Below are positions 9,001 through 63,891 of a stretch of 64,000 bases of DNA, one piece after another. Below the pieces are notes generated by a model. It saw only the letters and a list, made by a program, of their open reading frames with translations, was not told the origin of the DNA and ran no database searches. The position numbers and the translations under genes were made by a program. How positions within the stretch are numbered: position 1 is the first letter of the stretch; each line of letters opens with the position of its first letter. Where the stretch lies: positions 305 to 64,304 of the IMG/VR virus record IMGVR_UViG_3300045988_183785; one strand, 5' to 3'. The DNA comes from a virus.

Positions 9001-10341
9001 GCTCACCGTGATATCAACGACGAAAACCAGTCTGTCGAGATTAAGAATCCCGTCATTGTTGAAACCATCGCAACAAACAAAGTCGATGGGGGAAAGCTGG
9101 TTGACCCCACAGAGAAGGTCGTTTTGACTGATTCTGTAAAATACGACCATCTCTCCACTGCTCACAAGTATACACTTGTTGGTAAGCTGATGGATAAATC
9201 TACTGGAGAATCCTTGAAGGATAAGGACGGCAACTCTGTTGTTGCATCCACATTCTTTACTCCTGACAACCTCTTCGGTTCTGTTGAAGTCTTGTTTGAG
9301 TTCGATGGGAGTTCGCTCGCTGGCAAGGATATTGTTGTATTTGAGTATCTCTATTACAACGAGGGAGATGAAACGGCTTTGGCAACTCACGAGGACTTGG
9401 AAGACACCGCACAGACCGTTTCCTTTGCGAATCCTGCTATCAAGACCTCTGCTGCCAATGCTTCTACGGGGAAGAAGACGTTCTCTCCGTATGAGAAAGC
9501 CGAGCTGGTAGACACTGTGACCTATGAGGGACTTATCCCCGGTCACGAGTACACCTTGGTCGGGACTCTGGTAGAAAAGGTTAAATCTGGTGGGAATTGG
9601 GTCGAAGGTAAACCCGTCATGGACAAGGACAAAAAGCCCTTGACCGCTACTGCGACCTTTACGCCTGAAAAGGCCGAAGGAACAACGACGGTTTCTTTTG
9701 TGTTTGGTGCTCGTTCCGTTGCGGGGAAAACTCTCGTTGTGTACGAGGAGCTCCTCTACAACAACATGAGTGTCACTACTCACGCTGACATAACGGACGA
9801 GAACCAAACGGTTACAGTTGACCGCATCCATTATAGCGGGCCTACTATGGGAACTACGGCGACATTTGCCAATGGCTCAAAGTCCAGCGGTTACGCCTCT
9901 CGCCTTGTGGTCGTAGATACCGTGAGTTATTCTGGGTTGGCTGTTGGTCAGAATTACACCTTGGTTGGCAGGTTGATGGATGCTCAGACGGGGGAGGCTC
10001 TGCGCGATGCGGGCGGCAGGGAAGTAACCTCCAAGCTGACATTTACCCCGAAGGCCTCCGATGGCTCCATCGACATGAAATTCTCCTTCGCTGCGTCGAA
10101 CATCAAGGGTGCGAAGATTGTCGTGTTTGAGGAGGTGTATGTCGGAGGAAGTGTGGACGGGACTCCGTACCTGAGCCATACTGACATCAATGATGCTGGA
10201 CAGACTGTGACTGTTACCGCGTCTCCCAAGACTGGAGACGATGGCGTCGGCAAATATGTCTCTTTGGGCTCGATTGCCTTGGGAACTGCAATTATTGTCG
10301 TTGTAGTGAGCAACGTCAAGAGAAGAAAGAAAAATAAGTAA
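7..10341 (+). CDS. Giant cell-wall-anchored surface adhesin, 5'-truncated by the window edge. It has Cna-B-like repeats followed by about 18 Thr-Gln ester-bond-type stalk repeats and a C-terminal SPKTG sorting signal.
   Basis: Single 3444-aa ORF with no stop until 10341. There are about 13 repeats of ~95 aa with the motif KTSEDGxV...FxLxGT...TDANGxATFxNV (Cna B / prealbumin-like). These are followed by about 18 repeats of ~120 aa, each with a conserved VVFEELY...HxDxxDxxQTV motif. That motif is the His/Asp/Gln signature of autocatalytic Thr-Gln ester-bond domains (Cpe0147-type). The C-terminus reads SPKTGDDG, then a hydrophobic stretch, then a KRRKKNK tail, which is a sortase sorting signal. 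The N-terminal 95 aa align to aa ~345-440 of the downstream paralog, so the signal peptide and thioester domain lie upstream of the window. Confidence 0.85.
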   Translation: MREFGRIKFSLSGISTSKSGNNLTITATPEAAKSMLNGIESLPCKGNVIDPDSVNAYLLVAGGSKQNCVALNGWPDPVTCYVRAKVTQTTGNLNITKTSENGKNISNVSFTVTGPNGYNRLFKTNASGKISITDLQPGTYTITETSPLGYYAVNRVQTATVTIGGTASVSFQNKVSRCTVQVTKTSEDGVLQGFTFTLKGTSYAGDTVNLSATTDANGKATFSNVPLGSNYVLTEANTPGRYVAPVSQTFTLSTPNTSVSKTFENKLARGNVTVTKTSEDGKVSGVQFNLKGTSLSGQTVNLTETTNASGVATFSNVLVGTYTLTEVNTGRQYAPVSAQNVTVQYNSTARATVSNKLARGSVQVTKSSEDGKVANVKFRLQGTSIDGTAVDLYAATNASGVATFSNVLIGSYTVSEVNVPAYYQAVNPVNVTVTINRKVSVSVQNRLKVGAVQVTKTSEDGVVSNLSFTLTGTSDAGTTVSMTAKTDAQGVANFSNVPIGTRYTVQESSTPTRYVVPGVQAGITVRVNDTTKLSFHNDLARGSLRVTKTSEDGFVSGVKFHLEGTSTSGAAVSLDATTNAVGIAEFKNVLVGNSYVLTEVDTAARYVVPAVQNGITITVGKTTEASVYNKLARGTVTVTKTAEDGLVSGIKFRLTGTAGNGDTVDMTATTNAKGVATFSDVLIGENYFVQEVGTAEKYIVPDVVSGINVTLNKTTNANVHNKLARGTVSVTKTSEDGIVEGIKFHLTGASAQGQRVDMMAVTNASGIATFDNVLVGYNYALEEVDTAARYVIPAVKGGINVKLDKTTTVSVHNVLKKWSVTVTKRDIETTTAQGNATLQGAVYGLYNGDELVKQYTTDVNGKFTTDIYICGDSWTIREIVPSVGYLLDDSVYQVGAEAKNYVIEINAAPDLGVTEKVIKGYIKIFKHSDVGPTGVEESLPTGKVTPEVGAEFDVYLKAAGSYAAAKTTDRDHIVVDEDGYATTKALPYGTYVIEQTKHFEHADMLSGFEVTISENGKTYFYVLNDRPYYASVRVVKQDAMDNVQIPYSGAEFQIYDPDGTLVSLKAGTQKIDTFRTDNDGNLITPEELPFGRGYKLVETKAPRGYRLNSTPVTFNVDFESTTMEDGNKVVVVKMTDAPVTPQIKTVAKGAAGEKTLEPLTSVTIKDTVSCTDVIPGKTYTVNGYLVLKSTGEPLLDGAGRKITATNTFVGSNDFKGSTVLSFTFDASLIAGDAVVVYDTLHRDGVEVATHKNISDADQTVSFFAPEIKTSAVNPDGNVKVVDPSIGVSIVDTVSYKHLTPGHKYILNGQMMDRDTQQPAKDDNGTYIVGTTTFTPATTEGSVDVTFTFDATEIAGVQLVAFEKLYHVAISSDIPVATHEDIEDAEQTVTVEAPEITTHATNAEDGTKFLDPQYMVKVRDSVAYEKVVEGHTYLLTGKVFDKTTGEFVKDASGNEITGTTRFTPTAKAGTVDVEFVFDASELYGHMLVVFEKLSYRGVVLTVHEDEADAEQTVNVYSPKIGTTAIDGEGTGKFIDPAKNAVIKDTIAYEHLTIGQEYTIIGTVMNKRTGEAVVSGGRTVTVTNTFTPSASKGSTEMVFTFDASGLDGDSLVVYEELYFRASDSTPCAIHKDIGDEGQTVVVNTPAIHTTINESISLNNYFEPLNEITITDTVTYTDLVPGHRYKVKGNLVSKDTGDVIRDGNGNLVSGEADFVPTTKDGNIDVKFTLNASILYGQSVIAFESLYYHNTVIAEHKDLADEKQEAVFFAPALSTKALNNDGNTNLIDPAKGTHIVDTVYYRHLTPDHEYTVVGKLMDKMTGLPLLDAKGDEITGKTVFTPQRVAGAVNVEFTFDASNMAGKTLVVFEYLYFNEGDETPAGTHTDISDLKQSLTFNTPAIKTSAKNAEDNSKFFDPKSAVRLVDTVSYEGLCKGHEYTVNGVLMDKKTGTPVLNTDGNPVTGTTSFTARSAAGKVKVEFVFDASQLYGKSLVVFEELVFNGTVIAEHRDLDDRSQTVTINVPSISTRAVNTDGKGKMLDAAKETSITDTVSYSHVTPGHEYTLVGRLMNGGTGEEIPGTATRVKFTPKRTSGDVDMTFALDASLLAGKNVVVFEELFFNETDAAPCATHKDLRDEAQTVTVMEPSIGTTMKASPDKNQFFVSSLSTVLVDTVTYHNLIPGHTYVAEGRLMDKATGRVLVGGNGEISGRTVFVPKSMDGSVDVYFTFDSSELFGKTVVAFETVSYGGHIIAKHEDINDVDQSATFYNPELTNTTAVNGEGGSKYIDAARNVVIKDTVKYAHLPIKHDFKLRGTLVFQSSGEPVLLYNKPIVVEKSFTAKKAEGSIDMEFVFDASGLQGKKIVVFEELFYENQTIAAAAHKDLGDVGQTVTVSNPKVKTVASNKVDGSKMLEPDKRVTILDTVSFSGLIEGHTYKVSGTLMDKATGNPVVDESGETITAEKTFKAKAAGGSVDVEFTFAATELYGKDIVVFEKIFCNDTEIASHENINDREQTVTVYAPNITGTTAVGTLGGGKLIDPAANVKITDTVTYEHLSAGHKYTLRGTLMNKETGEAIKNGGTEVVVEQTFTPVEASGSVDMQFVFTASFLKGKDIVVFEEIYFNSEDTEPVAVHRDIDDGKQTVSVTSPEVRTVAVNKEDNGKVFEPDQTVTLKDTVFYNNLIVGHRYTVTGTLMDKGTGKPIKDTAGSIVASSVEFTPDAPCGTVDVEFPFAATELYGKTIVAFEKLLFNGTVIASHEDINDEEQTTTVHNPEIVRTVALSAVDGGKFIDASETSTINDTVVYRHLSTGHAYTLRSSLVDKTTGEPVLNNGKPVVSEMQFTPESTAGSAVAAIAFDASAAKGRDIVVFEELFFTAGDEAPVAAHKDIEDADQTVTVVKSSIKTCAENAADGTKVFEPASEVILKDTVDYEGIIAGHTYKVVGTLMDKSTGKPVEAAAGKSITAEKVFTPEGENGSVVVEFKFDARDFFGRTLVVFEDLYYGETVVAAHRDINDENQSVEIKNPVIVETIATNKVDGGKLVDPTEKVVLTDSVKYDHLSTAHKYTLVGKLMDKSTGESLKDKDGNSVVASTFFTPDNLFGSVEVLFEFDGSSLAGKDIVVFEYLYYNEGDETALATHEDLEDTAQTVSFANPAIKTSAANASTGKKTFSPYEKAELVDTVTYEGLIPGHEYTLVGTLVEKVKSGGNWVEGKPVMDKDKKPLTATATFTPEKAEGTTTVSFVFGARSVAGKTLVVYEELLYNNMSVTTHADITDENQTVTVDRIHYSGPTMGTTATFANGSKSSGYASRLVVVDTVSYSGLAVGQNYTLVGRLMDAQTGEALRDAGGREVTSKLTFTPKASDGSIDMKFSFAASNIKGAKIVVFEEVYVGGSVDGTPYLSHTDINDAGQTVTVTASPKTGDDGVGKYVSLGSIALGTAIIVVVVSNVKRRKKNK

Positions 10342-10560: not shown

Positions 10561-10669
10561 AAGCACGTCAAAAATAATGTCAAGTTTTCCACAGCTTAAA
10601 CCTCGTCACGGTCTATTATTTAATTACATTCCCTGAGCAAATTTTGAAATGAATGAAAGGACAAGAACT

Positions 10670-11860
10670 ATGAAAAAGATGAAGAATTTTATCGCCCTGC
10701 TGCTGGCTCTGGTGATGACCATGAGTTTGATGGCCTGCGGCAACAAGACTGACGAGGAGACCAAGACCGGAGAGGATATCGGCTGTTACGTGCAGACCAC
10801 CGAGTCCGGTGAGAAGGTTCTGGTGGATAAGGACGGCAACGCCGTGACCGACTACACGCTGGACGACGAAGGCAATGTGGTGGACACGCAGGGCGTGGTG
10901 GTCGTCAAGGCGGCGGACATCACGGCTTACGAGAAGTCCGAGGAAAAGGATGCGGAGAACAAGACCGACGCATCCGAGGCAAATACTCAGAAGCCTGAGG
11001 ATACTGCGAAGCCCGATGGCGAGAACAAGTCCGACGCACAGAAGACGGACACCAAGGTAGATAACACCAAGAAGGACGAGACCAAGAAGGACGACGCCAA
11101 GCAGGAGACTCAGAAGCCTGCTGACGCCAAGCAGGACACCACGAAACCTGAGACCAAGCCCGAAACAAAGCCTGAGGTTAAGCCGGAGCCCCAGAAGCCC
11201 GCAGCACCCAGCTACGATAACGGTTCTCTGACCACCGCACAGGTGAAGGAACTCCAGCGCTGGTACGGCGTAAGCGCGGACGGTCAGTGGGGTGCAGGCT
11301 CCAAGAAGGCCGCCGGTGGCCGCACCGCTGATGAGGCGTGGGCATACTACCAGAGCAACAAGCAGATTACCACCCCCGAAAACCCCTCTGGCGGCAACAC
11401 TGGTAACACTGGCAACACTGGGAACACTGGAAATACCGGCAGCACAGGTAACTCTGGCGCTGGTAACACTGGAAACACCGGCTCTACCGGTTCCACGGGT
11501 GGCGGTTCCACGGCTCCCACTACGCCTTCTGAGCCCGCCAAACCCACCAAGGCGACCATTGATTGCGAACAGGCTATGAGAGTGGGTAACGCATATGCAG
11601 AAAGCCTTGGTTTTATGATTTGGGACGGAGCCACCGGGTATAATCCCCCCGTTTTCCTTGAGCGCGATTGTCCTGAGTCCTGCTGGAATCAGGAGTGGGT
11701 TGAGGCGACAATTAAGAGAAATATTGATTTCCTTGTAAGCCAGTTGGAAAAAGCTACGGGTGAGAAGCCTTCTGATGCACCTTATGGGTCTTATGCCGCT
11801 AACTGTGTCGTTCGGTGGAATGCCTCTGCCGGTTATCACGAAATTTATATCTACTATTAA
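10670..11860 (+). CDS. Lipoprotein with a K/E/T-rich low-complexity linker, a (GNT)n repeat and a putative peptidoglycan-binding-like segment
   Basis: Lipobox signal peptide MKKMKNFIALLLALVMTMSLMACG with an RBS (GAAAGGA) upstream. The ORF call began at 10649, but the ATG at 10670 fits the signal peptide better. There is a GNTGNTGNTGNTGSTGNSGAGNTGNTGSTGSTGGG repeat. The segment VKELQRWYGVSADGQWGAGSKKAA resembles PG_binding_1. Confidence 0.6.
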   Translation: MKKMKNFIALLLALVMTMSLMACGNKTDEETKTGEDIGCYVQTTESGEKVLVDKDGNAVTDYTLDDEGNVVDTQGVVVVKAADITAYEKSEEKDAENKTDASEANTQKPEDTAKPDGENKSDAQKTDTKVDNTKKDETKKDDAKQETQKPADAKQDTTKPETKPETKPEVKPEPQKPAAPSYDNGSLTTAQVKELQRWYGVSADGQWGAGSKKAAGGRTADEAWAYYQSNKQITTPENPSGGNTGNTGNTGNTGNTGSTGNSGAGNTGNTGSTGSTGGGSTAPTTPSEPAKPTKATIDCEQAMRVGNAYAESLGFMIWDGATGYNPPVFLERDCPESCWNQEWVEATIKRNIDFLVSQLEKATGEKPSDAPYGSYAANCVVRWNASAGYHEIYIYY

Positions 11861-11940: not shown

Positions 11941-12222
11941 CTTTATACATAAGAGGAGAAGATTAAGATGGAAGCGAAATAAGTAAGAGATGAACCCAAA
12001 AAGTCAAAAGGGTGTCAGCAGGGGTTGATACCCTTTTCTTTTCTTCTTGAAATTTGTAGGTGCGGATGTGTTGACAATATGCGCGATTATGCTACCATAA
12101 AAACATGGAGGGCAATCCGCCTCCTTATATCATTCGTTTCAAATTGGCAATATTAAGAAATGAATAAATATAAGAGGGCTGATTTTCTCTAAATAATTCT
12201 TCATTGAAAGGAGACAAATACC

Positions 12223-15200
12223 ATGAAGCACAAGAAGGTACGTGGCGTTGTTGCTATGTTGCTGACGCTGGTGATGATGGTCGGAATGCTCCCGACATCC
12301 GTGTATGCGTCGGACGCGGATGGCGGCGGCAATTCGGTCGTCATCAAAAGTGTTTCTGACCCTGTGATGGTTGGAAAGACTGGTTCTGGCGACGGCGATT
12401 TGGTCTACAACGCCACAGAAGACACGAAGAATCCCGATGACAGCAAGAAGTCCGATTCTACCGTTGTTGAGGATGAGGTTAAGGGAGATGCCGATAAGAA
12501 GGACACCTCCAAAGAGAGCTCCTCTGAAAACGGGCAGGCTGCTCCGGGTGAAGCTAAATCTGAGACTGGTAAAGATGAGTCTGTCAAATCTTCCGTGACG
12601 GAGGAGGGACTTCAGGACCCCTACGCCGGAGAGAATACTCCTGTGAACGTTTCCATCCTTTACGGGTCTGCACAGAACGCCCCCAGAGCTATCAGTGCAA
12701 TGAGGGCTCCCGCTCGCGCATCGGGCACCATTACGACCGGTGACGACATGAGCTATAACAGCAAGTGGATGGCTGAGTTCGCACCCTATTCCAGTGCCGT
12801 TGTAAAATATTTCAACGGCCAGCCGGCGTACTGTATTGAACCCCACAAGGGTGCCCCCGGCGCGGGAACTTCCGTTGATGCCAGCGCGTATTGGGGAGAC
12901 CAGCGGGTTCGCCTCGCGCTTGCCTATGGCTACGGTGGGGCAGATGACTCAACGTTGCTCTGGTATGCTGGCAACGGCACCTATGCTTGGTGCGCCACAC
13001 AGGAAGTTATCTGGGAAATCGTCGGCGGCTACAGTGACCTGAGTGACCTGTTTGTGGGTCCCGGTCATGCTTATGACCCTGAAGTTGCTGTGCCCATCAA
13101 GGCGGCACACGATTATATCTGGGAGAAGATTAACCAGCAATCTATTATTCCAAGTTTTGCAGTATATACCCCTTTTGATAGCAGAAAGGATATTGAGCTT
13201 TCTTGGGACGGTTCTTCTTGGACAGCTACAAAAACCGATACCAACAGGGTTTTGAGAAATTTCGACGACTTTGAGTTTGGCCTGTCCGGTGTGAGCACCT
13301 TCCAGAGTGGAAACAATCTGACGATTACAGCCACACCGGAAGCTGCGAAGAGTATGCTGAACGGCATTGCGTCGTATGCTTCTGAGGGCAATGTGATTGA
13401 CCCCGACAGCGTCAATGCTTACCTTCTCGTCGCGGGTGGCAGCAAGCAGGACTGCGTTGCGCTGAACGGTTGGCCTGACCCCGTTACTGCTTACGTTCGC
13501 GCCAAGGTCACAAAGACTACCGGCGATTTGAACATTGCCAAGACCTCCGAGGATGGCAAGGTAGGCGGCGTGAGTTTCACGGTCACGGGCCCCAACGGTT
13601 ACAGCAAGACTGTGACCACTGGTGCAAACGGTAAGATTGCCATTACCGATTTGCAGCCCGGTACTTATACCGTAACGGAGAATACACCCGGCAATTACAT
13701 CCCGACGCAGCCCCAGTCCGTAAACATCGCAATCGGCGATTTTAAGACGGTGAACTTCAGCAACGTGCTGAAGAAGGGCGTTGTGAAGGTTACTAAGACC
13801 TCTGAGGATGGTCAGATTGCTGGTCACACCTTCCGTCTGTCCGGCACTTCCGCAGCAGGTACGGCTGTCAATATGACGGCTGTTACGGATGCCAACGGCG
13901 TGGCTACCTTCAATAATGTTCCTGTGGGCAACAACTATAAGCTGGAGGAAATCAACACCGCAGCGAAGTATGTTGTTCCTGCGGTGCAGGCTGGCGTGGT
14001 GGTTGAGTACAACACCAGCACCCCCGCTCAGTTTGAGAACAAGCTGGCTCGCGGCAATCTGAAAATCACGAAGACCTCCGAGGATGGCTTCGTGGCAGGC
14101 ATGACCTTCCGGCTGACCGGTACGTCTATCTCCGGTGCAGCAGTCAATGAAACTGCTTCTACCGACGAGAACGGTGTCGTCATGTTCAGAGAAATCCTTA
14201 TCGGTAATAACTATACCGTACAGGAAATCAACACCGCCGAGCGGTACGTTGTTCCCGCTGTCCAGAACAATGTGACCGTCACGCTCAACAATACCACCAG
14301 CTTGAACTTCCATAATAAGCTGGCTCGCGGCGCCGTTGAGGTTAAGAAGACCTCCGAGGACGGCAAGGTCGCTGGTATCACGTTCCGTCTGTCCGGTACT
14401 GCTATCAACGGCGAGACGGTGGATATGACCGCCGTGACCAATGACGCCGGAGTTGCCACCTTCAACAACGTTCTGATTGGCAACAACTACAGCGTTGAGG
14501 AAGTGAACACGGCTGCCAAGTATATCGTTCCCGCTGTGACAAACGGCGTGAAGGTTACTCTGGATAACACCACCCCCGTGAATGTCTACAACAAGCTCAA
14601 GCGCGGCGACCTGCGCGTTACCAAGACCTCTGAGGACGGCATGGTCGAGGGCATCACCTTCCGGCTGCATGGAACTGCCATCTCCGGCGATGCTGTTGAC
14701 CTGACTGCTACCACCAACGCTGACGGTATTGCCATCTTCAAGGATGTCCTGATTGGCAACAACTACACGCTGGAGGAAGTCGATACGGCGGTGAAGTATG
14801 TTATTCCTGCCGTGCAGACAGGTCTCGTTGTGGAGTTCCAGAAAGTTACCGACACCGCTGTGACCAACGTACTGAAGAAGTGGAAGGTCACTGTGGAGAA
14901 GACGGACGCCGAGACTGGCAACATCCCTCGCGGCGATGGTGTCTTTGAGGGTGCTGTGTACGGTCTCTATAAGGGTGACGAGCTGGTGAAGGAGTACGTT
15001 ATCGGCAGCGACGGTAAGTTTACCACTGACGAGTACATCTGCGGCTATGATTACACCATCCGTGAAATCAAGGCGCCCACTGGCTATCAGATTGATGAGG
15101 GCGTGTATCGCGTTGGCGCCGAGCCGGAGAACTACCGTATCGAACACAACGTTGCTCCCCAGATTACCTCTGTCGAGGTCATCAATCGCGGCACATTCGC

Positions 15201-17889
15201 CATCACCAAGTTCATCTCCGACGGGACCTCCGGTCCCGCTAAGTTCGAGGGCGGTGCAGAGTTCAAGTATTGGCTGCAGTCCGCCGGCTCTTACGAGAAC
15301 GCTAAGGATGACGAGCGCGGTATCCTGACGACCAACGACTTGGGCTACAGCGGCAAGTCCATCGAGCTGCCCTACGGCACCTATGTGGTGCATCAGACCA
15401 AGGCCGGCGATAAGGGGGCGGGGCTCGCGCCTGAGTTCACCGTTCTGGTCGGCGAGGTTGACCACGACCATCACGACTTGGCTGTCAACAACGGACCTAT
15501 TACCGCGTACCTGCGCGTTGTGAAGGTCGATGAGCTTGACGGCGAGGTCATTCCTTGGGGCGGCGCGAAGTTCCAGATTTACGACCCTGACGGGAACAAG
15601 GTGTCCCAGAAGGTCACTTACCCCACGGTAACTTATATTGATACATTCGAGACCAATGATGAGGGTTATTTTGTGACCCCGCTGGTTCTGCCTTACGGCG
15701 AGAACTATCATCTGGTCGAAATCGTACCCCCGAAGGGTTATGAGCTGATGGATACCCCGATTACCTTCAGCGTTACGCCCGATACCATTTCTCTGGATGC
15801 CGAGACCGGTCTGGTGACTGTGAATATCATCGCCGAGGACGAGGCGGTGACTCCCAAGGTCAAGACTACTGCAACCGACAAGGAAGGCAACAAGGAAATC
15901 GTTCCGTCCACCACCGTCACTATCGTCGATAAGGTGGAATGCACCGACGTTATCCCCAACAAGACCTATACGGTCGAGGGATATCTGGTGGTTAAGTCCA
16001 CCGGCGAGCCTCTGCTGGACGCCGAGGGTAATCGCATTACCGCCTCTAAGACCTTCAAGGCTGAAGCCGACTTCACTGGCTTTGTGGAGCTGGAGTTCAC
16101 CTTTGATGCGTCTCTGCTGGGTGGCGAGTCCATCGTTGTTTTCGAGGACCTGAAGCGCGGAAACCGTGTCGTTGCTACCCATGCTGACATCAACGATGTT
16201 GACCAGACCGTTGTAATCCTGAACCCCAAGATTGGCACCACGGCCAAGAACGCTGTTGGCGGCAAGGAGTTCATGCCTCTGGCTGATGTGATTCTGGTGG
16301 ATACCATCTCCTACGAGAATATGCCCGTGGGTAAGGAGTTCATCGCTATCGGTACGCTGATGGATAAGGCCACCGGCAAGCCCGTTACCGATGCCAACGG
16401 CGACCCCGTTACCTCTTACAAGGTGTTCACTCCCGAAGCTGCCACTGGTACGGTGGATGTGAAGTTCGTCTTTGACGCTTCCAAGCTGGCCGGCAAGTCT
16501 CTGGTGGTATTCGAGCGTGTGTATCTGGGCAACGAGATTGTTCCCGGCGACTCCAATAAACCCGTGTTTGTGAGTCACGAGGATATCAACGATGAGGGGC
16601 AGACCGTCACCATCGGCGTTCCCGAAATCGGTACAAAGGCCGTGAACAACGCCACCAATGGCAAGACCCTCGACCCCGAAGCCCGCGCTGAAATCAAGGA
16701 TACCGTGTCCTATAAGGGCCTGATTGCTGGAGAGAAGTACACTGTCTCCGGTAAGCTGATGAACAAGGCCACCAACGAGCCCCTGAAGGATAAGGACGGA
16801 AAGGAAATCACCTCCTCCGTTACCTTCACCGCTGAGGCGTCCAATGGCACCGTTGACGTGTTCTTCGTGCTCGATGCATCTCTGCTGCGTGGTCAGTCTA
16901 TCGTTGTATTCGAGTCCCTACAGTACAAGGACATTGAAATCGCAGTTCATGCCGACATCAACGATGTTGACCAGACTGTGACTGTCAATAGCCCTGAAAT
17001 CAAGACCACCGCTAAGAACGCTGCTGATGGCAAGAAGGAATTCTGGGCCTACAGCAAGGTCGAGCTGGTCGATACCGTGTCCTATAAGGGCCTGATTGCC
17101 GGCAATAAGTACACCGTAATCGGTAAGCTGATGGACAAGGCGACAGGTGAGCCTGTTCTGGGCCGCAACAACAAGGAAATCACCGCCACTACCGAGTTCG
17201 AGGCCAAATCCTCTGACGGCACTGTGGATGTGAGCTTCGTGTTTGATGCATCCATTCTGGGCGGTAAGACGCTGGTCGTGTTCGAGACCCTGACCCGCAA
17301 TGGCACTACGGTAGCGACTCACGCCGACATCAACGATGTTGACCAGACTGTGACCATCAAGCGCATCCCGACCTATTCCGGTCCGAGCATTTCCACCACC
17401 GCTACCTTCGATGGCAAGGAGAAGAAGAACTCCGTTGCTGGTAAGAACGTGAAAATCGTGGACACCGTCAACTATACCGGCCTGACTGTGGGCAAGACCT
17501 ACGTGCTGGTTGGTACGCTGATGGATAAGGATTCCGGTGTTGCCCTCAAGGACAATAAGGGGAATCTGGTAACGGCTACCACGACCTTTACGCCCAAGTC
17601 CTCCAACGGGGCTGTGAATGTTACGTTCAAGTTCGACGCATCCAAGCTGAAGGACCATGCGCTCGTGGTGTTCGAGACTCTGTATGAGGGTCGTGCTGAG
17701 GCGGGTAATGTCATTGCTACCCACAACGACCTGATGGACGGTGCCCAGACGGTGTATTTCCGCGACAGTGTCCAGACTGGCGATGAGGGCATCGGCCTGT
17801 GGGCCATGCTGGGTACGTTCAGTACCATTGCTTGCTGCGGCACTGCGGTGTTCATGTTCCGCCGCAAGAAGGAGTATGGCGCCGAGTAA
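12223..17889 (+). CDS. Thioester-domain (TQXA-type) surface adhesin with Cna-B-like repeats, 5 Thr-Gln ester-bond-type stalk repeats and a C-terminal sorting signal. It is a paralog of the upstream adhesin.
   Basis: RBS AAGGAGA, then a signal peptide MKHKKVRGVVAMLLTLVMMVGMLPTSVYASD. The N-terminal domain has Cys in YCIEPHKG and Gln in WCATQEVIWE, which is the Cys-Gln pair and TQxA-like motif of TED adhesins. There are about 8 KTSEDG Cna-B-like repeats, then VaFE/ester repeats with HADINDVDQTV motifs. The C-terminus reads SVQTGDEG, then a hydrophobic TM stretch, then FRRKKEYGAE. Confidence 0.85.
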   Translation: MKHKKVRGVVAMLLTLVMMVGMLPTSVYASDADGGGNSVVIKSVSDPVMVGKTGSGDGDLVYNATEDTKNPDDSKKSDSTVVEDEVKGDADKKDTSKESSSENGQAAPGEAKSETGKDESVKSSVTEEGLQDPYAGENTPVNVSILYGSAQNAPRAISAMRAPARASGTITTGDDMSYNSKWMAEFAPYSSAVVKYFNGQPAYCIEPHKGAPGAGTSVDASAYWGDQRVRLALAYGYGGADDSTLLWYAGNGTYAWCATQEVIWEIVGGYSDLSDLFVGPGHAYDPEVAVPIKAAHDYIWEKINQQSIIPSFAVYTPFDSRKDIELSWDGSSWTATKTDTNRVLRNFDDFEFGLSGVSTFQSGNNLTITATPEAAKSMLNGIASYASEGNVIDPDSVNAYLLVAGGSKQDCVALNGWPDPVTAYVRAKVTKTTGDLNIAKTSEDGKVGGVSFTVTGPNGYSKTVTTGANGKIAITDLQPGTYTVTENTPGNYIPTQPQSVNIAIGDFKTVNFSNVLKKGVVKVTKTSEDGQIAGHTFRLSGTSAAGTAVNMTAVTDANGVATFNNVPVGNNYKLEEINTAAKYVVPAVQAGVVVEYNTSTPAQFENKLARGNLKITKTSEDGFVAGMTFRLTGTSISGAAVNETASTDENGVVMFREILIGNNYTVQEINTAERYVVPAVQNNVTVTLNNTTSLNFHNKLARGAVEVKKTSEDGKVAGITFRLSGTAINGETVDMTAVTNDAGVATFNNVLIGNNYSVEEVNTAAKYIVPAVTNGVKVTLDNTTPVNVYNKLKRGDLRVTKTSEDGMVEGITFRLHGTAISGDAVDLTATTNADGIAIFKDVLIGNNYTLEEVDTAVKYVIPAVQTGLVVEFQKVTDTAVTNVLKKWKVTVEKTDAETGNIPRGDGVFEGAVYGLYKGDELVKEYVIGSDGKFTTDEYICGYDYTIREIKAPTGYQIDEGVYRVGAEPENYRIEHNVAPQITSVEVINRGTFAITKFISDGTSGPAKFEGGAEFKYWLQSAGSYENAKDDERGILTTNDLGYSGKSIELPYGTYVVHQTKAGDKGAGLAPEFTVLVGEVDHDHHDLAVNNGPITAYLRVVKVDELDGEVIPWGGAKFQIYDPDGNKVSQKVTYPTVTYIDTFETNDEGYFVTPLVLPYGENYHLVEIVPPKGYELMDTPITFSVTPDTISLDAETGLVTVNIIAEDEAVTPKVKTTATDKEGNKEIVPSTTVTIVDKVECTDVIPNKTYTVEGYLVVKSTGEPLLDAEGNRITASKTFKAEADFTGFVELEFTFDASLLGGESIVVFEDLKRGNRVVATHADINDVDQTVVILNPKIGTTAKNAVGGKEFMPLADVILVDTISYENMPVGKEFIAIGTLMDKATGKPVTDANGDPVTSYKVFTPEAATGTVDVKFVFDASKLAGKSLVVFERVYLGNEIVPGDSNKPVFVSHEDINDEGQTVTIGVPEIGTKAVNNATNGKTLDPEARAEIKDTVSYKGLIAGEKYTVSGKLMNKATNEPLKDKDGKEITSSVTFTAEASNGTVDVFFVLDASLLRGQSIVVFESLQYKDIEIAVHADINDVDQTVTVNSPEIKTTAKNAADGKKEFWAYSKVELVDTVSYKGLIAGNKYTVIGKLMDKATGEPVLGRNNKEITATTEFEAKSSDGTVDVSFVFDASILGGKTLVVFETLTRNGTTVATHADINDVDQTVTIKRIPTYSGPSISTTATFDGKEKKNSVAGKNVKIVDTVNYTGLTVGKTYVLVGTLMDKDSGVALKDNKGNLVTATTTFTPKSSNGAVNVTFKFDASKLKDHALVVFETLYEGRAEAGNVIATHNDLMDGAQTVYFRDSVQTGDEGIGLWAMLGTFSTIACCGTAVFMFRRKKEYGAE

Positions 17890-32868: not shown

Positions 32869-32882
32869 AAAGTAAAAAATAA

Positions 32883-33400
32883 GTACGGACGGTATAACCG
32901 GAATTAACGCCTGTGGAGATGCATGGTCATCGTGGAAGCAGGAATACTCTGTTAGCTGGTCATTCATGTGAGAGATGATGTCAGCACTTTTAGGGAACTG
33001 AATATGCCTGTGTCGGGTGTATGAAACCCTGAAAAAGCAGTGGTGTATACCATCAACGCAGTCCCATTAGAGTGCCGGAGAGGTATATAAAGCCCCGAAA
33101 TAGCAGGGTTGTATACCATGTTGACTACGGGAATCACAGTATACAGGGCCTTAAAACAATAGGGTTATATACCACTCACGCATTCCTGTTGCTTGTGAGC
33201 ACAAGATGCCAAATTTTGAAAAAGTGTGCAATGATTGCATACTTAAAAAGTACGGATGGTATAACCGGAATTAACGCCTGTGGAGACGGACTCCGTCGCT
33301 AAAGCAGGAACTTGCCATGAGCTGAATTCTGCGTGAGAGGCGGTGCAACGCCGAGGTGGGAGTACCTTGGGGGAACATTAGCAAGCGCACAAAAATCAAA
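32883..33400 (+). mobile_element. IS200/IS605-family right-end / omega-RNA-scaffold-like remnants (two diverged copies plus a 3-unit mini-repeat), directly 3' of tRNA-Ser. No tnpA or tnpB is present.
   Basis: 32883-32972 is about 92% identical to 63059-63150, the sequence downstream of the tnpB-like gene. A second diverged copy at about 33215-33400 includes the palindrome GTGTGCAATGATTGCATAC found right after the tnpB-like stop (63018-63036). Three short repeats resembling CCCyGAAAwAGCAGGGTTGTATACCA lie at about 32990, 33040 and 33140. Confidence 0.55.
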
Positions 33401-42939: not shown

Positions 42940-42999
42940 GATGTTTTCTCCTTTCTCCCAGCCTGTGATAAGGACTTACGGGAAACCAAAATAAAATGT

Positions 43000-43200
43000 A
43001 TATATAGAAAAAGACAATCACTGCCCGAAAAGGGAAGTGATTGTCTGAATTTATGATGTGACTTGAAAAACGGAGATAAAACTCCTTATAAAAATATCTT
43101 CGTAATTATACTATTATACTACCACGTTTCGCTATTTTGTCAACAGCAGCAACGTAAAAAAAGAAGCTCCCGAAGGAGCTTCTTTTGAAATTTAGTTTTT
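43000..43200 (-). promoter_or_regulatory. Repeat module R1: terminator of the upstream operon, then promoter (TTGACA-N19-TATAAT-AG-TATAAT), conserved leader and a terminator-like attenuator hairpin
   Basis: Sequence shared with 48935-49125, 52925-53112 and 55965-56160. Read on the minus strand it is TTGACAaaatagcgaaacgtggtagTATAATagTATAATtacgaagatatttttataAGGAGttttatCTCC...AGACAATCACT-loop-AGTGATTGTCT-TTTTTCTATATA. Confidence 0.6.
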
Positions 43201-48907: not shown

Positions 48908-48934
48908 GCGTTTACTCCTTTCGTTTTTACTTGT

Positions 48935-49125
48935 TCTGAATATATAAAAAGACAGTCGTTCCCAAATGAGAACAACTGTCTTGAATATGATGATGTGACT
49001 GAAAACGGAGATAAATCTCCTTATAAAAATATCTTCGTAATTATACTACTATACTACCACAATTCTTTATAATGTCAACGGAAACGGTACAAAAAAAGAA
49101 GCCCCCGAAAGAGCTTCTTTTTAAG
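48935..49125 (-). promoter_or_regulatory. Repeat module R2 (terminator, promoter, leader and attenuator hairpin)
   Basis: Read on the minus strand: TTGACAttataaagaattgtggtagTATAGTagTATAATtacgaagatatttttataAGGAGAtttATCTCCgttttcagtcacatcatcatattcAAGACAGTTGTTC-loop-GAACGACTGTCTTTTTATATAT. Confidence 0.6.
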
Positions 49126-52871: not shown

Positions 52872-52924
52872 ATTTTTCTCCTTTCTCCCAGCCTGTGTTA
52901 AGGTCTTATGGGAACAAAAATGTA

Positions 52925-53112
52925 GTGAATATATAAAAAGACAGTCGTTCTCAAAAGAGAACAACTGTCTTGAATGTGATGATGTGACTGAAAACGGAGA
53001 CAAAGCTCCTTATAAAAATATCTTCGTAATTATACTACTATACTACCACATTTCCTTATAATGTCAACGGTTTCGACGCAAAAGAAAAGAGCCGCACAGC
53101 GGCTCTTTTTTT
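52925..53112 (-). promoter_or_regulatory. Repeat module R3 (terminator, promoter, leader and attenuator hairpin)
   Basis: Same architecture as R2. The leader hairpin is AAGACAGTTGTTCTC-tttt-GAGAACGACTGTCTT followed by TTTTATATAT. Confidence 0.6.
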
Positions 53113-55929: not shown

Positions 55930-55964
55930 TATGTTTTCTCCTTTCTTATTGTGTTGTAATGTAA

Positions 55965-56160
55965 AAAAATATATAAAAAGACAGCTATCCCTGTCTTGGG
56001 ATAACTGTCTTGAATACTTGGTGTGACTGGAAGCGGAGATAAGTCTCCTTATAAAAATATCTTCGTAATTATACTATTATACTACCACAATTATTTATAA
56101 TGTCAACAATGGCAGAGAAAAAAGAGGCGGCTTTCGCCTGCCTCTTTTTTTACCTTATTT
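55965..56160 (-). promoter_or_regulatory. Repeat module R4 (terminator, promoter, leader and attenuator hairpin)
   Basis: Read on the minus strand: TTGACAttataaataattgtggtagTATAATagTATAATtacgaagatatttttataAGGAGActtATCTCC...AAGACAGTTATCCC-aagaca-GGGATAGCTGTCTT followed by a T run. Confidence 0.6.
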
Positions 56161-60709: not shown

Positions 60710-61198
60710 TGGACAGGGCAAGAAAGGCTCGTTCGAAGGGCTCGTGCCTAAAATGACAATATTCTTGCGATTGTAAGAATAAGCGCCTAAATTGCCCGTC
60801 CCGTTTTCTTCTTTCTTTAATTACACTCATAAGCACAATAAAGTCAGCTCCCTGAGGGAAGTGTGCGGGAGCTGCTTCGACTTTCGCGTTGTTCTCCATG
60901 CGGGGAGGTTCTGGCGGTTCGAGTCCGCACGACGCGCCTTCTGTTTTCGCTGCTGTTATCTTTGCCTCTGTCTTTTCCAACGAGCAGCGGACACGGAAAC
61001 ATCTCTCAATATGATAGCGTAGCATAACTGGTAATGCCGTACCTCTCTCACAGGTAACGATATGTTGGTTCAACTCCAGCCGCTATTGCCAGCCGGCGTT
61101 CTACCCACCCCGCCGACATCAACTCTCTTCGGCGCTGGCGGCCTCCGTGCAGACGTGATTAACCTGCGATAAGCGGAGGCTGCCAGCACCACCAAAAT
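60710..61198 (+). ncRNA. Candidate structured non-coding transcript or leader upstream of the tRNA cluster (no convincing ORF; contains tRNA-like T-loop motifs)
   Basis: About 490 nt lie between a strong promoter and tRNA-Thr with only short, low-quality ORFs. GGTTCGAGTCC (60918) and GGTTCAACTCC (61067) are T-loop-like. A tRNA-like acceptor pairing CGCGTTG/CGACGCG flanks the first. Confidence 0.25.
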
Positions 61199-61274
61199 GC
61201 TGGTGTAGCTCAGTAGGCAGAGCGGCGCACTCGTAACGCGCAGGTCGTGGGTTCGACCCCCACCGTCAGCTCCA
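61199..61274 (+). tRNA. tRNA-Thr (anticodon CGT)
   Basis: Acceptor GCTGGTG/CGTCAGC (two G-U pairs), anticodon loop CTCGTAA, T-loop GGTTCGACCCC, 3' TCCA. Length 76 nt. Confidence 0.8.
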
Positions 61275-61367
61275 TTCCATACTCATTCTCCTTCAAGTGA
61301 AGCCCCCGTGTAACAGGTCTTTTGAAAAGTGCTTTCAGCCTCGTTGTGCGGGGGCTTCACAACTTAT

Positions 61368-61443
61368 GCTGATGTAGCTCAGTTGGCAGAGCGGCGGATT
61401 TGTAAACCGCAGGTCGGGGGTTCAAGGCCCTCCATCAGCTCCA
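61368..61443 (+). tRNA. tRNA-Thr (anticodon TGT)
   Basis: Acceptor GCTGATG/CATCAGC, anticodon loop TTTGTAA, T-loop GGTTCAAGGCC, 3' TCCA. Length 76 nt. Confidence 0.8.
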
Positions 61444-61478
61444 TTAAAACCATGTGCTTTTGTGGTGTTTTTATATGC

Positions 61479-61555
61479 GCGGATGTCGTCTAATTTGGTG
61501 AGACACCAGCCTTCCAAGCTGGTCATTGCGGGTTCGAGTCCCGTCGTCCGCTCCA
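61479..61555 (+). tRNA. tRNA-Gly (anticodon TCC)
   Basis: Acceptor GCGGATG/CGTCCGC, anticodon stem-loop CCAGC-CTTCCAA-GCTGG, T-loop GGTTCGAGTCC, 3' TCCA. Length 77 nt. Confidence 0.8.
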
Positions 61556-61943: not shown

Positions 61944-63002
61944 ATGCCAACTACATTTCAAGCGTTTAAGTATCGCATTTACCCGACTGATGAGCAGGTC
62001 GAAATCATTGAAAAGACTTTCAAGTGCTGCCGGTTTGTGTGGAACCATTTCCTTGAGCGAACCTCCAAAATCTATGACCGTCGGCAGGAAAAGATGACGA
62101 CCTTCGACTGTATGAAGGTTCTCACGGAGATGCGGGAGCGCTGGCCTTGGCTTGCGGACTGCGGCTGTACGGCAGAGAGATATGCCATCATTGATTTGTT
62201 TGAGGCGCGAAAGGCGTTCTTCCGCCGCATTAAAGCGGGGGAGAAGCCCGGTTATCCCAAATTTAAGGGCGCGTCCCATCCGACACAGAGTTTTACGACC
62301 GCTGGTACTATCTATGTGACGGACGATTACATTCAGGTTCCGTTTGGAGGACAGTATCAGAAAATCAACAAGCTCAGGCGAGGGACGGGGCGCCCCATCG
62401 AAGGGTCTCCCCGCGAGGTCACTATTTCTCGGTCTGCTACCGGAAAATACTGGGCATCTGTCTGCTGTAAAGTAGAGCGAGACACGCTGCCTATTGTGGA
62501 CGGCGAGGTGGGAATCAGTCTCGGCCTGAAGGAGTTGGCTATTGACAGCAACGGCGTTCACTATGAGAACCCGAAGCATCTGAGCAAGTCTGCAAAGCGG
62601 TTGGCACGTGAGCAGCGGCGTCTATCCCGCAAGAAGAAGGGCTCTGTCAACTACGAGAAGCAGCGGCGCAAGGTAGCCGGCGTCCATGAGCATATTGCCA
62701 ATCAGCGCAATGACTACCGGCATAAAATCAGCCGTGAACTTGTCAACGCGAACCAGCTTATTGCTGTTGAGAAGGTGGCCGTTAAGCCCTTAGTTGAGGG
62801 CAATGAGCAGGCTAAAAGCATCCTCGATGCCGGCTGGTCTGAACTTACCGGTATGATAAAGTATAAGGCGGACTGGGCTGGACGCACTCTGGTGGACGTA
62901 GATACCGCCACCGTAGCACCGGAAGCCAAGCATGATGAGGCACTGGCACAGGTCGTGCTGTCCGAAGGTCAGCGCATGGCTTCCGAGCAGAAGCCTGCCT
63001 AA
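61944..63002 (+). CDS. tnpB: TnpB homolog (IS200/IS605 OrfB family) with a substituted RuvC-I Asp and a C-terminal truncation that removes the zinc finger and RuvC-III. It is either a TldR-like nuclease-dead RNA-guided protein or a decaying tnpB.
   Basis: The N-terminus MPTTFQAFKYRIYPTDEQ is typical of TnpB. The RuvC-I motif reads VGISLGLKELAIDSNG where GIDLG is expected, so the catalytic D is replaced by S. The RuvC-II Glu is retained in LIAVEKVAV. The protein ends at ...EYKADWAGRTLVDVD plus a short tail. Canonical TnpB continues from here with a CxxC...CxxC zinc finger and the RuvC-III Asp. No alternative frame restores these. Length 352 aa against about 400 for active TnpB. Confidence 0.7.
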   Translation: MPTTFQAFKYRIYPTDEQVEIIEKTFKCCRFVWNHFLERTSKIYDRRQEKMTTFDCMKVLTEMRERWPWLADCGCTAERYAIIDLFEARKAFFRRIKAGEKPGYPKFKGASHPTQSFTTAGTIYVTDDYIQVPFGGQYQKINKLRRGTGRPIEGSPREVTISRSATGKYWASVCCKVERDTLPIVDGEVGISLGLKELAIDSNGVHYENPKHLSKSAKRLAREQRRLSRKKKGSVNYEKQRRKVAGVHEHIANQRNDYRHKISRELVNANQLIAVEKVAVKPLVEGNEQAKSILDAGWSELTGMIKYKADWAGRTLVDVDTATVAPEAKHDEALAQVVLSEGQRMASEQKPA

Positions 63003-63222
63003 AGCCGAGCGAGGAAAGTGTGCAATGATTGCACACATTGCCAAGGAAATAAAAACGAGTACGGACGGTATAGCCGGAATTAACGCCTGTGGAGATGCAT
63101 GGTCGTCGTGGAAGCAGGAATACTCTGTTGGCTGGTAGTCACGTGAGAGGTGGCACCAGCGCTTTGGGGAACTGAATACCTGTGCTGGGTATACACCACC
63201 CGGAAATAACAGGGTTTTACCA
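63003..63222 (+). ncRNA. Omega-RNA (reRNA)-like scaffold downstream of the tnpB-like gene, at the IS605-type right end
   Basis: A perfect palindrome GTGTGCAATGATTGCACAC follows the stop. A ~90-nt block is ~92% identical to 32883-32972. Further hairpins follow (GGCACCAGCGC..., CCCGGAAATAACAGGG). The structure shows compensatory changes relative to the copy at 33215-33400. Confidence 0.5.
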
Positions 63223-63321
63223 TTCGTAATTATAGTTCTTCCCTCCGCTGTGTGGAGCGTTTTGTCGAAATGACAAAACATTCCTCTTAAATTCTTAAAA
63301 ACAAGAAAGGAAATAAAGAAT

Positions 63322-63891
63322 ATGGAACCTTCTATCAACAGAACTCTCACCGTCAGCGTCGTCAGCTATGGCGTCGTATCTGTCGTCAATGGAGTCATCA
63401 ACGTTGACAACCAGAACCCCATCGAGTTTCCCGCCGTGCTGGACGAGGCATCCGCTGCCAAGCTGCTGAAGAGCAGATACGGCGGCAAGCTGTTCCCCGT
63501 GGATGCAAATATCGTCGTGTCTTCCATCCGGCATGAGAAGTGGAAGTTCTCTATGGACCTGAGCCAGTTCGTCGCTACCGCTGCCCGCAGCCGCGTGGAT
63601 GGAACCGAGTCCGGTGCTGATGATACCCCCGCAGAGGACGTTCCCGCCGCCGAGCCTGCTGCTCCTGCGCCTGAGACGGCACCCGCTGCTTCTCCTGCTA
63701 TCCCCATGCCTCTGGTCTCTGAACCTGAGGAGGATTTTGCGCCTGTAGCTCCCGAAGCGCCTGCTCCCGCCGGTGGTTTCGCTCCTGAGACTCCTGCGCC
63801 CGCTGCTCCCGCCAAGGAAGTTCCCTATGGTGGTAACTTCAATTTCCCCGCTGACAGCGGTGGCGACTTCGGTTCCGGCTTCTTCGGTTAA
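63322..63891 (+). CDS. Hypothetical protein with a Pro/Ala/Glu-rich low-complexity C-terminal half
   Basis: ATG 8 nt after AAAGGAAATAAAGAAT. The C-terminal half contains the repeats AAPAPETAPAASPAIP and APEAPAPAGGFAPETPAPAAPA. Confidence 0.4.
   Translation: MEPSINRTLTVSVVSYGVVSVVNGVINVDNQNPIEFPAVLDEASAAKLLKSRYGGKLFPVDANIVVSSIRHEKWKFSMDLSQFVATAARSRVDGTESGADDTPAEDVPAAEPAAPAPETAPAASPAIPMPLVSEPEEDFAPVAPEAPAPAGGFAPETPAPAAPAKEVPYGGNFNFPADSGGDFGSGFFG

Follow-up and report, generated by a model that had tools for sequence, protein, structure and literature searches.

The stretch of DNA analysed here, called the window below, comprises 64,000 nt (positions 305 to 64,304 of the IMG/VR virus record IMGVR_UViG_3300045988_183785) and comes from a jumbo phage of ~170–190 kb. 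Near its right end it carries a gene for a small TnpB-like protein, followed by a scaffold that resembles an omega RNA. The initial annotation had taken the 12 nt behind this scaffold, TTCGTAATTATA, for the possible guide of a single RNA-guided repressor, because the same 12-mer lies in the promoter modules (R1–R4) of four operons of the phage. We compared the locus among 26 related IMG/VR contigs (up to 192 kb) from gut metagenomes, all of which share the tnpB-like gene; the window's own lineage is defined by 99% protein identity and a sibling lineage by 87–88%. The comparison led us to favour, by a narrow balance of probability, a different reading: the phage would carry a nuclease-dead, TnpB-derived system resembling CRISPR interference and directed against promoters of rival phages, and the segment 63222–63239 would be the stump of an old spacer. 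Judged from the occurrence of the nearest bacterial TnpBs, the host is probably an Oscillospirales-type Firmicute.

The protein encoded at 61944–63002 matched the Pfam families HTH_OrfB_IS605 and OrfB_IS605, with a truncated TNB domain, and scored 253 bits against the NCBIfam model guided_TnpB (cut-off 100) and 303 bits against IS200_TnpB, below the 425 cut-off of that model. The closest natural solved structure was that of ISDra2 TnpB (E=2e-49). Alignment with active relatives showed a replacement of the RuvC-I aspartate by serine (GISLG) and the deletion of the 28-aa zinc finger, while RuvC-II E276 and RuvC-III D331 were retained. The proposal that this is a TldR-like protein was borne out: it is a TnpB homologue with a degraded RuvC site and without the zinc finger, and is presumably nuclease-dead. 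The gene was syntenic in the 26 phage contigs, at the same position relative to the modules, and no tnpA adjoined it. With neither a transposase nor transposon ends, and at a fixed position, it looks immobilised in the manner of a TldR gene. Beside it, in the window, lie an open reading frame (ORF) without a Pfam match and tRNA genes; a cluster of four tRNAs (61013–61555; Glu-CTC, Thr-CGT, Thr-TGT, Gly-TCC) stands immediately upstream, the Glu tRNA being called by ARAGORN and not by Rfam. In part of the sibling lineage (loci L019–L022) the protein (P0003) has an N-terminal third like that of an active TnpB type (P0011-like) and is otherwise of the phage type, a chimera that points to recombination with a mobile TnpB.

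The omega-RNA-like scaffold, also part of the first description, proved to be real. The phage clade contains 72 distinct copies of it with conserved stems, although covariation support is weak because most of the changes are one-sided, and Rfam held no family for it at gathering or E-value thresholds. The scaffold ends in a 36-nt hairpin repeat, GGTATACACCACCCGGAAATAACAGGGTTGTATACC, whose AACAGGG(U) is predicted to pair with an anti-repeat, ACUCUGUU. In most relatives this hairpin is reiterated with spacers of mostly 30 nt. The repeat occurs in many mini-arrays per genome, each behind its own scaffold copy of ~130 nt, and we collected ~105 distinct spacers, among which truncation to 15–25 nt was common. 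The locus thus has the arrangement of type V CRISPR-Cas, direct repeats with variable spacers beside a TnpB-derived effector. Strains that were 99% identical differed in the spacers at the scaffold-proximal end and shared the distal ones, which is the polarity of CRISPR arrays, and this gain of units at the scaffold-proximal end suggests active spacer uptake. We noticed no cas1, cas2 or cas4 in the stretches read, where no systematic search was made and full genomes were not scanned. The repeat was found in 52 stretches of IMG/VR, confined to this phage clade, and was absent from GTDB genomes, so that no host CRISPR system shares it.

The array that adjoins the tnpB-like gene of the window is reduced to one degenerate repeat, in which the 8-bp outer stem is lost (-6.6 vs -14.3 kcal/mol) and the anti-repeat pairing is kept. 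Scaffold and terminal repeat end at 63221 (...GGGTTTTACC), and the 12-mer therefore occupies guide positions 2–13. Guide position 1 is A63222 and the modules have C there, a mismatch; the guide had been placed correctly to within one base, the match beginning at position 2 and not directly behind the scaffold. The 12-mer itself was confirmed as shared by the locus and the four modules, these five plus-strand sites (43099, 49034, 53023, 56062 and 63223) being the only ones in the window when up to one mismatch was allowed, with 0.16 expected from shuffles. Over guide positions 2–18 the segment agreed with R2 and R3 at 15 of 17 positions and with R1 and R4 at 14 of 17, the 12 contiguous bases included. 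A perfect 17/17 match was found to one module variant, present in three sibling-lineage genomes, which reads ...GTAATGATAG|C TTCGTAATTATAGTTCT ATACTACCAC; in the window's lineage the corresponding module, ...AACAATAT|C TTCGTAATTATACTTCT, has the flank AATAT|C and differs from the guide at position 14. Beyond these 17–18 nt the flank had no similarity to any module. The segment is bounded by a repeat on one side and by unrelated DNA on the other, as a truncated spacer would be. By comparison with the loci of the relatives, the window retains here the far end of a CRISPR-like array and no fixed single-guide gene.

Three guide–target pairs were traced among the ~105 spacers, and each target lies on a promoter or promoter-leader of a sibling phage lineage. 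The first is that of the pseudo-spacer; the sibling module that it matches stands upstream of an operon with weak primase-like matches. The second, spacer CATATTGTCAACACATCCGGACCCACAAAT of a sibling-lineage contig, matches the window at 12081–12052 (28/30), on a promoter, TTGACA-16-TGcTACCAT, that lies behind a terminator and in front of the gene for an 1888-aa protein. Perfect 30/30 copies of this protospacer were present in the same context in eight human-gut metagenome contigs, with the flank AGCATAATCGCG (AATCGCG). The homologous promoter of the carrier lineage, TTCGAT|TATATTG..., differs from the spacer at position 1 and carries T at -1. The third, the 20-nt sibling-lineage spacer TCGTTTTCAAGTAACCACAT, matches 17/20 in the module leader, just 3' of the small hairpin; here too the copy in the carrier lineage itself is mismatched at position 1 and preceded by T at -1. 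Matches to foreign elements thus include one perfect 30/30 protospacer and the 17/17 match of the pseudo-spacer to the sibling module. Most spacers had no match in any of the searched sets; INPHARED phages gave none to the locus or to 38 concatenated spacers, and exact scans with two spacers of the window's lineage recovered arrays only.

Over 14 nt, two spacers of different phages (L005 11291–11310 and L016 11415–11444) are each other's reverse complement; both strands of a single target appear to have been sampled. The pair yields two further inferred 5' protospacer flanks, ...AACGG and ...AAAGG; the reconstructed 23-nt target was absent from IMG/VR and from the metagenome collection. Together with the flank of CATATTGTCAACACATCCGGACCCACAAAT and that of the sibling module (GATAG|C), four independent foreign flanks were available. 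All end in G (CGCG, ATAG, ACGG and AAGG), which is too few for a motif, and the three homologous sites in the carriers' own lineages, the modules of the window among them, all have T at -1. The transposon-adjacent motif (TAM) proposed earlier, AATATC, found no counterpart, being unlike the AATCGCG flank of the verified protospacer. In ISDra2 TnpB the motif TTGAT is read by Y52, S56, K76, F77 and Q80 (PMC10097598). All five residues are replaced here (T53, M57, C75, T76 and R79), and the TAM must accordingly be other than TTGAT; an arginine at the Gln80 position would be compatible with the reading of G. Active TnpB relatives did not yield a TAM, as the P0005 locus has no recognisable left end and the bacterial relatives found with P0011 (31–48% identical, single copies) provided none.

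How far could chance account for the match? The bare 12-mer is only modestly unlikely, as had been estimated: for 4 of 88 real spacers (~4%), and for 1.2–2.5% of shuffled ones, the 64-kb window contained an exact match of 12 nt or more that was anchored at the 5' end of the spacer, and the four spacers represent three distinct chance-level matches and one true protospacer. The four module hits, moreover, count as a single event, and the 17-mer TTCGTAATTATAGTTCT has four unrelated chance matches in IMG/VR, a scale at which AT-rich matches of 17 nt arise by chance. The idea that array flank and promoter DNA, both AT-rich, agree by coincidence conflicts with the extension of the similarity to 17/17: given the 12-mer, we estimate a chance of ~0.005 that the next 5 nt fit one of ~5 module variants, and for this reason we do not regard the guide–module relation as fortuitous. 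The spacer-like boundaries and the two other spacers pointing to sibling-phage promoters argue in the same direction. The alternative that the flank is a promoter-like cis-element of its own on the minus strand is opposed by the lack, on that strand, of a -35 element or a TAGTAT at promoter spacing. We regard coincidence and cis-element, taken together, as very improbable. The type-A flank, also considered as a decayed module or a minus-strand promoter, was rejected in both roles, with no similarity outside the 17 nt and no -35/-10 pair at promoter spacing. The 17-mer was seen in unrelated viral contigs (L085, L086 and L088; one labelled GVMAG) in a common, apparently coding, context.

The modules R1–R4 form a 190-nt repeat family, each member containing the 12-mer. 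On the minus strand each consists, in order, of the terminator of the preceding operon, TTGACA-16-TGgTAGTAT, five bases, TATAATTACGAAG, a GGAG...CTCC hairpin and a terminator. In a consensus scan TTGACA-16-TGgTAGTAT was the best sigma-70-type match of each module region; a strong intrinsic terminator ~60–95 nt downstream was listed by the scan for R2–R4, and R1 has a similar hairpin by alignment only. The TATAAT of the 12-mer is a second -10-like hexamer, 5 nt further downstream, and the 12-mer covers approximately +1 to +12 of the module transcript. The earlier statement that the 12-mer sits on the -10 elements therefore holds in part: the modules are predicted promoters and the 12-mer lies over their start region, but its TATAAT is not the best-placed -10. 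With its promoter, the additional -10-like TATAAT at ~+1, the small hairpin and the strong terminator all lying within ~100 nt (e.g. 48940–49078), the module would be a short RNA gene or else a leader dependent on antitermination. The layout resembles lambdoid late promoters with their sigma-dependent pause site and tR', and by analogy such a design could by itself explain why the 12-mer is invariant. A comparable arrangement, TTGACA-16-TAGTAT-5-TATAAG followed by a terminator-like hairpin, was observed on the plus strand of L003 (14430–14520), ~3.2 kb past the right end of the window, and on this evidence the dual -10 design appears general in this phage, beyond the four modules. The window's modules adjoin a gene for a RecG-like helicase; Pfam and PHROGs assigned no function to the operons they drive.

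With the modules described, the original proposal can be weighed: an RNA ending in ATTCGTAATTATAG... would guide the dead TnpB-like protein to the phage's own R1–R4 and repress or time the four operons. TldRs are small dead TnpB homologues whose guides, 9–16 nt long with a ~6-nt seed, lie 3' of the scaffold (10.1101/2023.11.30.569447), so that a contiguous 12-nt match in guide position, over the start region of four strong predicted promoters, would be long enough for repression. The segment is also the sole guide attached to the scaffold beside the gene in the window, and cr-like regulatory RNAs reportedly have the same layout, a pseudo-spacer of partial match behind a degenerate repeat. The strain comparison spoke against the proposal. 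The distal junction of the gene-side array exists in three alternative types: type A, the guide carrier, in the window and about a dozen contigs (roughly half the close strains, and no member of the sibling lineage); type B in four contigs of the window's lineage; and type C in the sibling lineage. The type-A flank was found only in type-A loci and had no homology elsewhere, types B and C replacing it in the other strains. The 12-mer was nevertheless retained in the modules at every locus of both lineages, and the modules were the same in guide carriers and non-carriers. In three type-A contigs the guide variant ATTATGG shortened the match with no compensating change in the target. Among the related loci compared, no other spacer or array-end flank matched the modules. 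Strains that share the modules but have no guide to fit them are what the initial annotation itself had named as grounds for refutation. Guide and target do not, then, covary among related strains, and a single repressor of the phage's own four operons is disfavoured both by this and by the better fit of the sibling module (17/17). The mismatch at position 1, the flank AATAT, unlike those of the traced protospacers, which all end in G, and the lost outer stem of the repeat tell further against it, and we judge the proposal to be improbable. The combination typical of TldRs, one conserved guide with a conserved promoter target and a cognate TAM, was not found; of the marks of a cr-like autoregulatory RNA the degenerate repeat and the 12-nt self-match are present, but the pair is not conserved and shows no co-variation. 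Annotation of the self-match as an autoregulatory circuit should await data.

The same features of the locus can be read as those of a relic, of spacer origin but now inert, with no function against self or rivals. The 2-nt deletion of the terminal repeat with the loss of its outer stem, the likewise degenerate terminal repeats of other arrays, the reduction of the spacer to 18 nt, and junction types B and C, which show that the region is dispensable, are all consistent with such a state. The predicted anti-repeat pairing and the last four bases of the repeat, TACC, are intact, however, and in the window and several strains the segment is the sole guide joined directly to the gene-side scaffold. 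We consider a complete loss of function unlikely, though a more serious candidate than repression of the phage's own operons.

In the reading that we prefer, the phage encodes a presumably dead TnpB-derived protein and many scaffold copies with mini-arrays; the RNA–protein complex would bind DNA without cutting it and block RNA polymerase at the promoters of a rival, and the outcome would be a CRISPR-interference-like exclusion of co-infecting relatives. The segment 63222–63239 would be what is left of a spacer taken from a promoter module of the sibling lineage, behind a degenerate terminal repeat, and the 12-nt self-match would arise because the modules of the two lineages are homologous (~85% identity). 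The phage's own modules would probably escape through T in place of G at -1 (a tentative one-base TAM) and through mismatches at guide positions 1, 14, and 16 and/or 17, depending on the module. Several points count against this reading. The guide–target pairs are only three among ~105 spacers, with one full-length perfect protospacer, and for a TAM with G at -1 there are only four independent flanks. The pseudo-spacer has A at position 1, a mismatch to the C of the sibling target as well, and a truncation must be assumed because 12 nt of a normal 30-nt spacer are missing. Since TldRs can function with guides of 9–12 nt and a ~6-nt seed, some binding to the phage's own modules is possible. Binding, repression, array processing and spacer acquisition are all predictions from sequence. 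A fuller version, which we put forward tentatively and hold to have somewhat less than an even chance, is that of a self-contained, spacer-acquiring system that excludes sibling phages at their promoters, including the operon modules of the replication region, and in which G versus T at -1 spares self, the 12-mer being a trace of that discrimination.

Table 1. Elements of the TnpB-like locus, the dispersed scaffolds and the promoter modules in the window
Feature	Position	Strand	Basis or remark
Presumably nuclease-dead TnpB-like (TldR-like) effector gene, 352 aa	61944..63002	+	Profile matches, alignment, synteny
Hairpin GTGTGCAATGATTGCACAC upstream of scaffold	63018..63036	+	Sequence reading; conserved in related loci; similar one at 33224-33242
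Omega-RNA / trans-activating CRISPR RNA (tracrRNA)-like scaffold	63057..63187	+	Family of copies in phage clade
Degenerate terminal repeat, 34 nt, 2-nt deletion relative to 36-nt repeat	63188..63221	+	Arrays in relatives
Pseudo-spacer ATTCGTAATTATAGTTCT, contains 12-mer 63223-63234	63222..63239	+	Probably truncated old spacer
Array-distal flank, junction type A, two small hairpins	63240..63321	+	Reaches ribosome-binding site of 189-aa ORF 63322-63891
Second, stand-alone scaffold with three-repeat mini-array	32881..33173	+	Same array in two related contigs
Third scaffold-like element, truncated	33248..33348	+	5' half conserved, 3' half different, no repeat
Protospacer of sibling-lineage spacer CATATTGTCAACACATCCGGACCCACAAAT, 28/30	12052..12081	-	Overlaps -35 hexamer 12071-12076
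R1: terminator, promoter TTGACA-16-TGgTAGTAT (43143..43116), TATAAT, small hairpin, terminator-like hairpin	42997..43187	-	12-mer 43099-43110
R2: promoter 49078..49051, hairpin 49020..49007, terminator 48982..48949	48932..49122	-	12-mer 49034-49045
R3: promoter 53067..53040, terminator 52971..52938	52921..53111	-	12-mer 53023-53034
R4: promoter 56106..56079, terminator 56011..55978	55960..56150	-	12-mer 56062-56073

The window contains two further scaffold-type elements (Table 1), neither of which has an adjacent tnpB-like gene. The first stands directly after a tRNA-Ser gene; its three repeats span 33016–33173 and enclose spacers at 33052–33081 and 33118–33138. In one strain (L004 11255–11350) the gene-side array runs straight into the repeats of the following one, ~1.4 kb of intervening genes being deleted; this shows that dispersed arrays recombine with each other. 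Some short spacers, ATATAATCTGTCGCTTGAGGAGACA, ACAGAATAACTGCGGCAGC and GCATAAAAAAGGCTAT, are conserved in both lineages in the second and third arrays of most loci (e.g. L003 12694–12718 and 14139–14160) and may serve as fixed guides whose target, perhaps in the host, is conserved too. When these spacers and the other array-end flanks were compared locally with promoters, only chance-level matches of 10–11 nt were obtained, and the conserved spacers yielded no target. The tnpB-like gene is itself matched on its antisense strand by two array spacers, CCGGATGGGACGCG... (62270–62282 (-), 13 nt) and AAACGGCCACCTT... (62772–62783 (-), 12 nt). In both, as in the 12-mer, position 1 is mismatched and the match runs from position 2; they have no flank motif in common. 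It is odd that two of the three chance-level spacer matches fall in this one 1-kb gene.

The system shares features with several that have been described and coincides with none. Like the TldRs (Wiegand et al., 10.1101/2023.11.30.569447; Xiao et al., 10.64898/2026.09.22.753285), the protein has a defective RuvC site, is encoded by a phage and lies outside any transposon; the guide directly follows an omega-RNA-like scaffold downstream of the gene, and promoters are targeted. TldRs differ in that a single fixed, conserved guide is directed, with a conserved TAM, to a promoter of the host (fliC or oppA), whereas in the present system the scaffold's 3' hairpin is reiterated with 30-nt spacers that vary between strains, each genome has many scaffold copies and the traceable targets lie in sibling phages. 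Only the RuvC-I residue and the zinc finger are lost here, and there is no fliC or oppF neighbourhood. With the binding-only type V systems (Cas12m / V-M and Cas12c) and the V-U groups with altered catalytic sites (PMC10691335, PMC10442227, PMC11013384) the locus has in common a TnpB-derived effector with a downstream array, and by analogy interference would be expected through DNA binding and transcriptional silencing and not through cleavage. The present protein is, in contrast, far smaller, with 352 aa, and by sequence a typical IS200/IS605-type TnpB; the whole scaffold is repeated before each mini-array, the system is carried by a virus, and no adaptation genes were noticed, full genomes not having been scanned. 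Duplication of omega-RNA segments is a general scenario for the origin of arrays (PMC10691335), and by analogy the arrays described here probably arose in this way.

Virus-borne mini-CRISPR arrays (Medvedeva et al. 2019, PMC6858448) are likewise short arrays in viral genomes with spacers that match close relatives, from which exclusion of relatives during co-infection is deduced. Here, in contrast, the virus supplies its own dead effector and the traced protospacers lie on promoters. The earlier mini-arrays reportedly use the Cas machinery of the host, the target being cleaved. The cr-like regulatory RNAs attributed to Shmakov et al. are said to target the promoter of the cas genes, to be conserved together with that target and to consist of a degenerate repeat and a partly matching pseudo-spacer. 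A degenerate repeat followed by a ~12-nt match to a promoter in the same genome is present here too; in this case a whole family of operon promoters is the target, guide and target are not conserved together across strains, and the fit is better with the sibling copy. TranC (LaTranC, PDB 9JFO) is comparable in combining a protein of the TnpB lineage with a CRISPR-type repeat–spacer RNA derived from the 3' part of an omega RNA. LaTranC differs from the present protein in that it matches weakly (E=1e-11) and in the C-terminal part only. It is said to be an active nuclease, and we know of no phage or promoter-targeting context described for it. In the literature that we searched, no phage-borne dead TnpB accompanied by arrays was described. 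The system is apparently undescribed, though it may belong to some V-U group of the 2023 survey.

Elsewhere in the window, at 7–10341 and 12223–17889, two giant ORFs of 3444 and 1888 aa contain tandem coding repeats of ~276 and ~375 nt, and their products look like adhesin-type repeat proteins. A flanking gene for a 403-aa protein (10649–11860) is highly variable between otherwise near-identical strains (56–82% identity).

If our reading is correct, the locus would be a natural link, within a virus, between the single-guide TldR repressors and array-based type V CRISPR, with an effector that, at 352 aa, would be among the smallest known. It would provide a programmable DNA-binding protein of very small size, whose TAM may be minimal, and would offer a testable case of spacer uptake without visible cas1 and cas2. 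The silencing of promoters without DNA cleavage would then be a weapon in conflicts between phages, and the system would reveal how the silencing of a phage's own, near-identical promoters is avoided.

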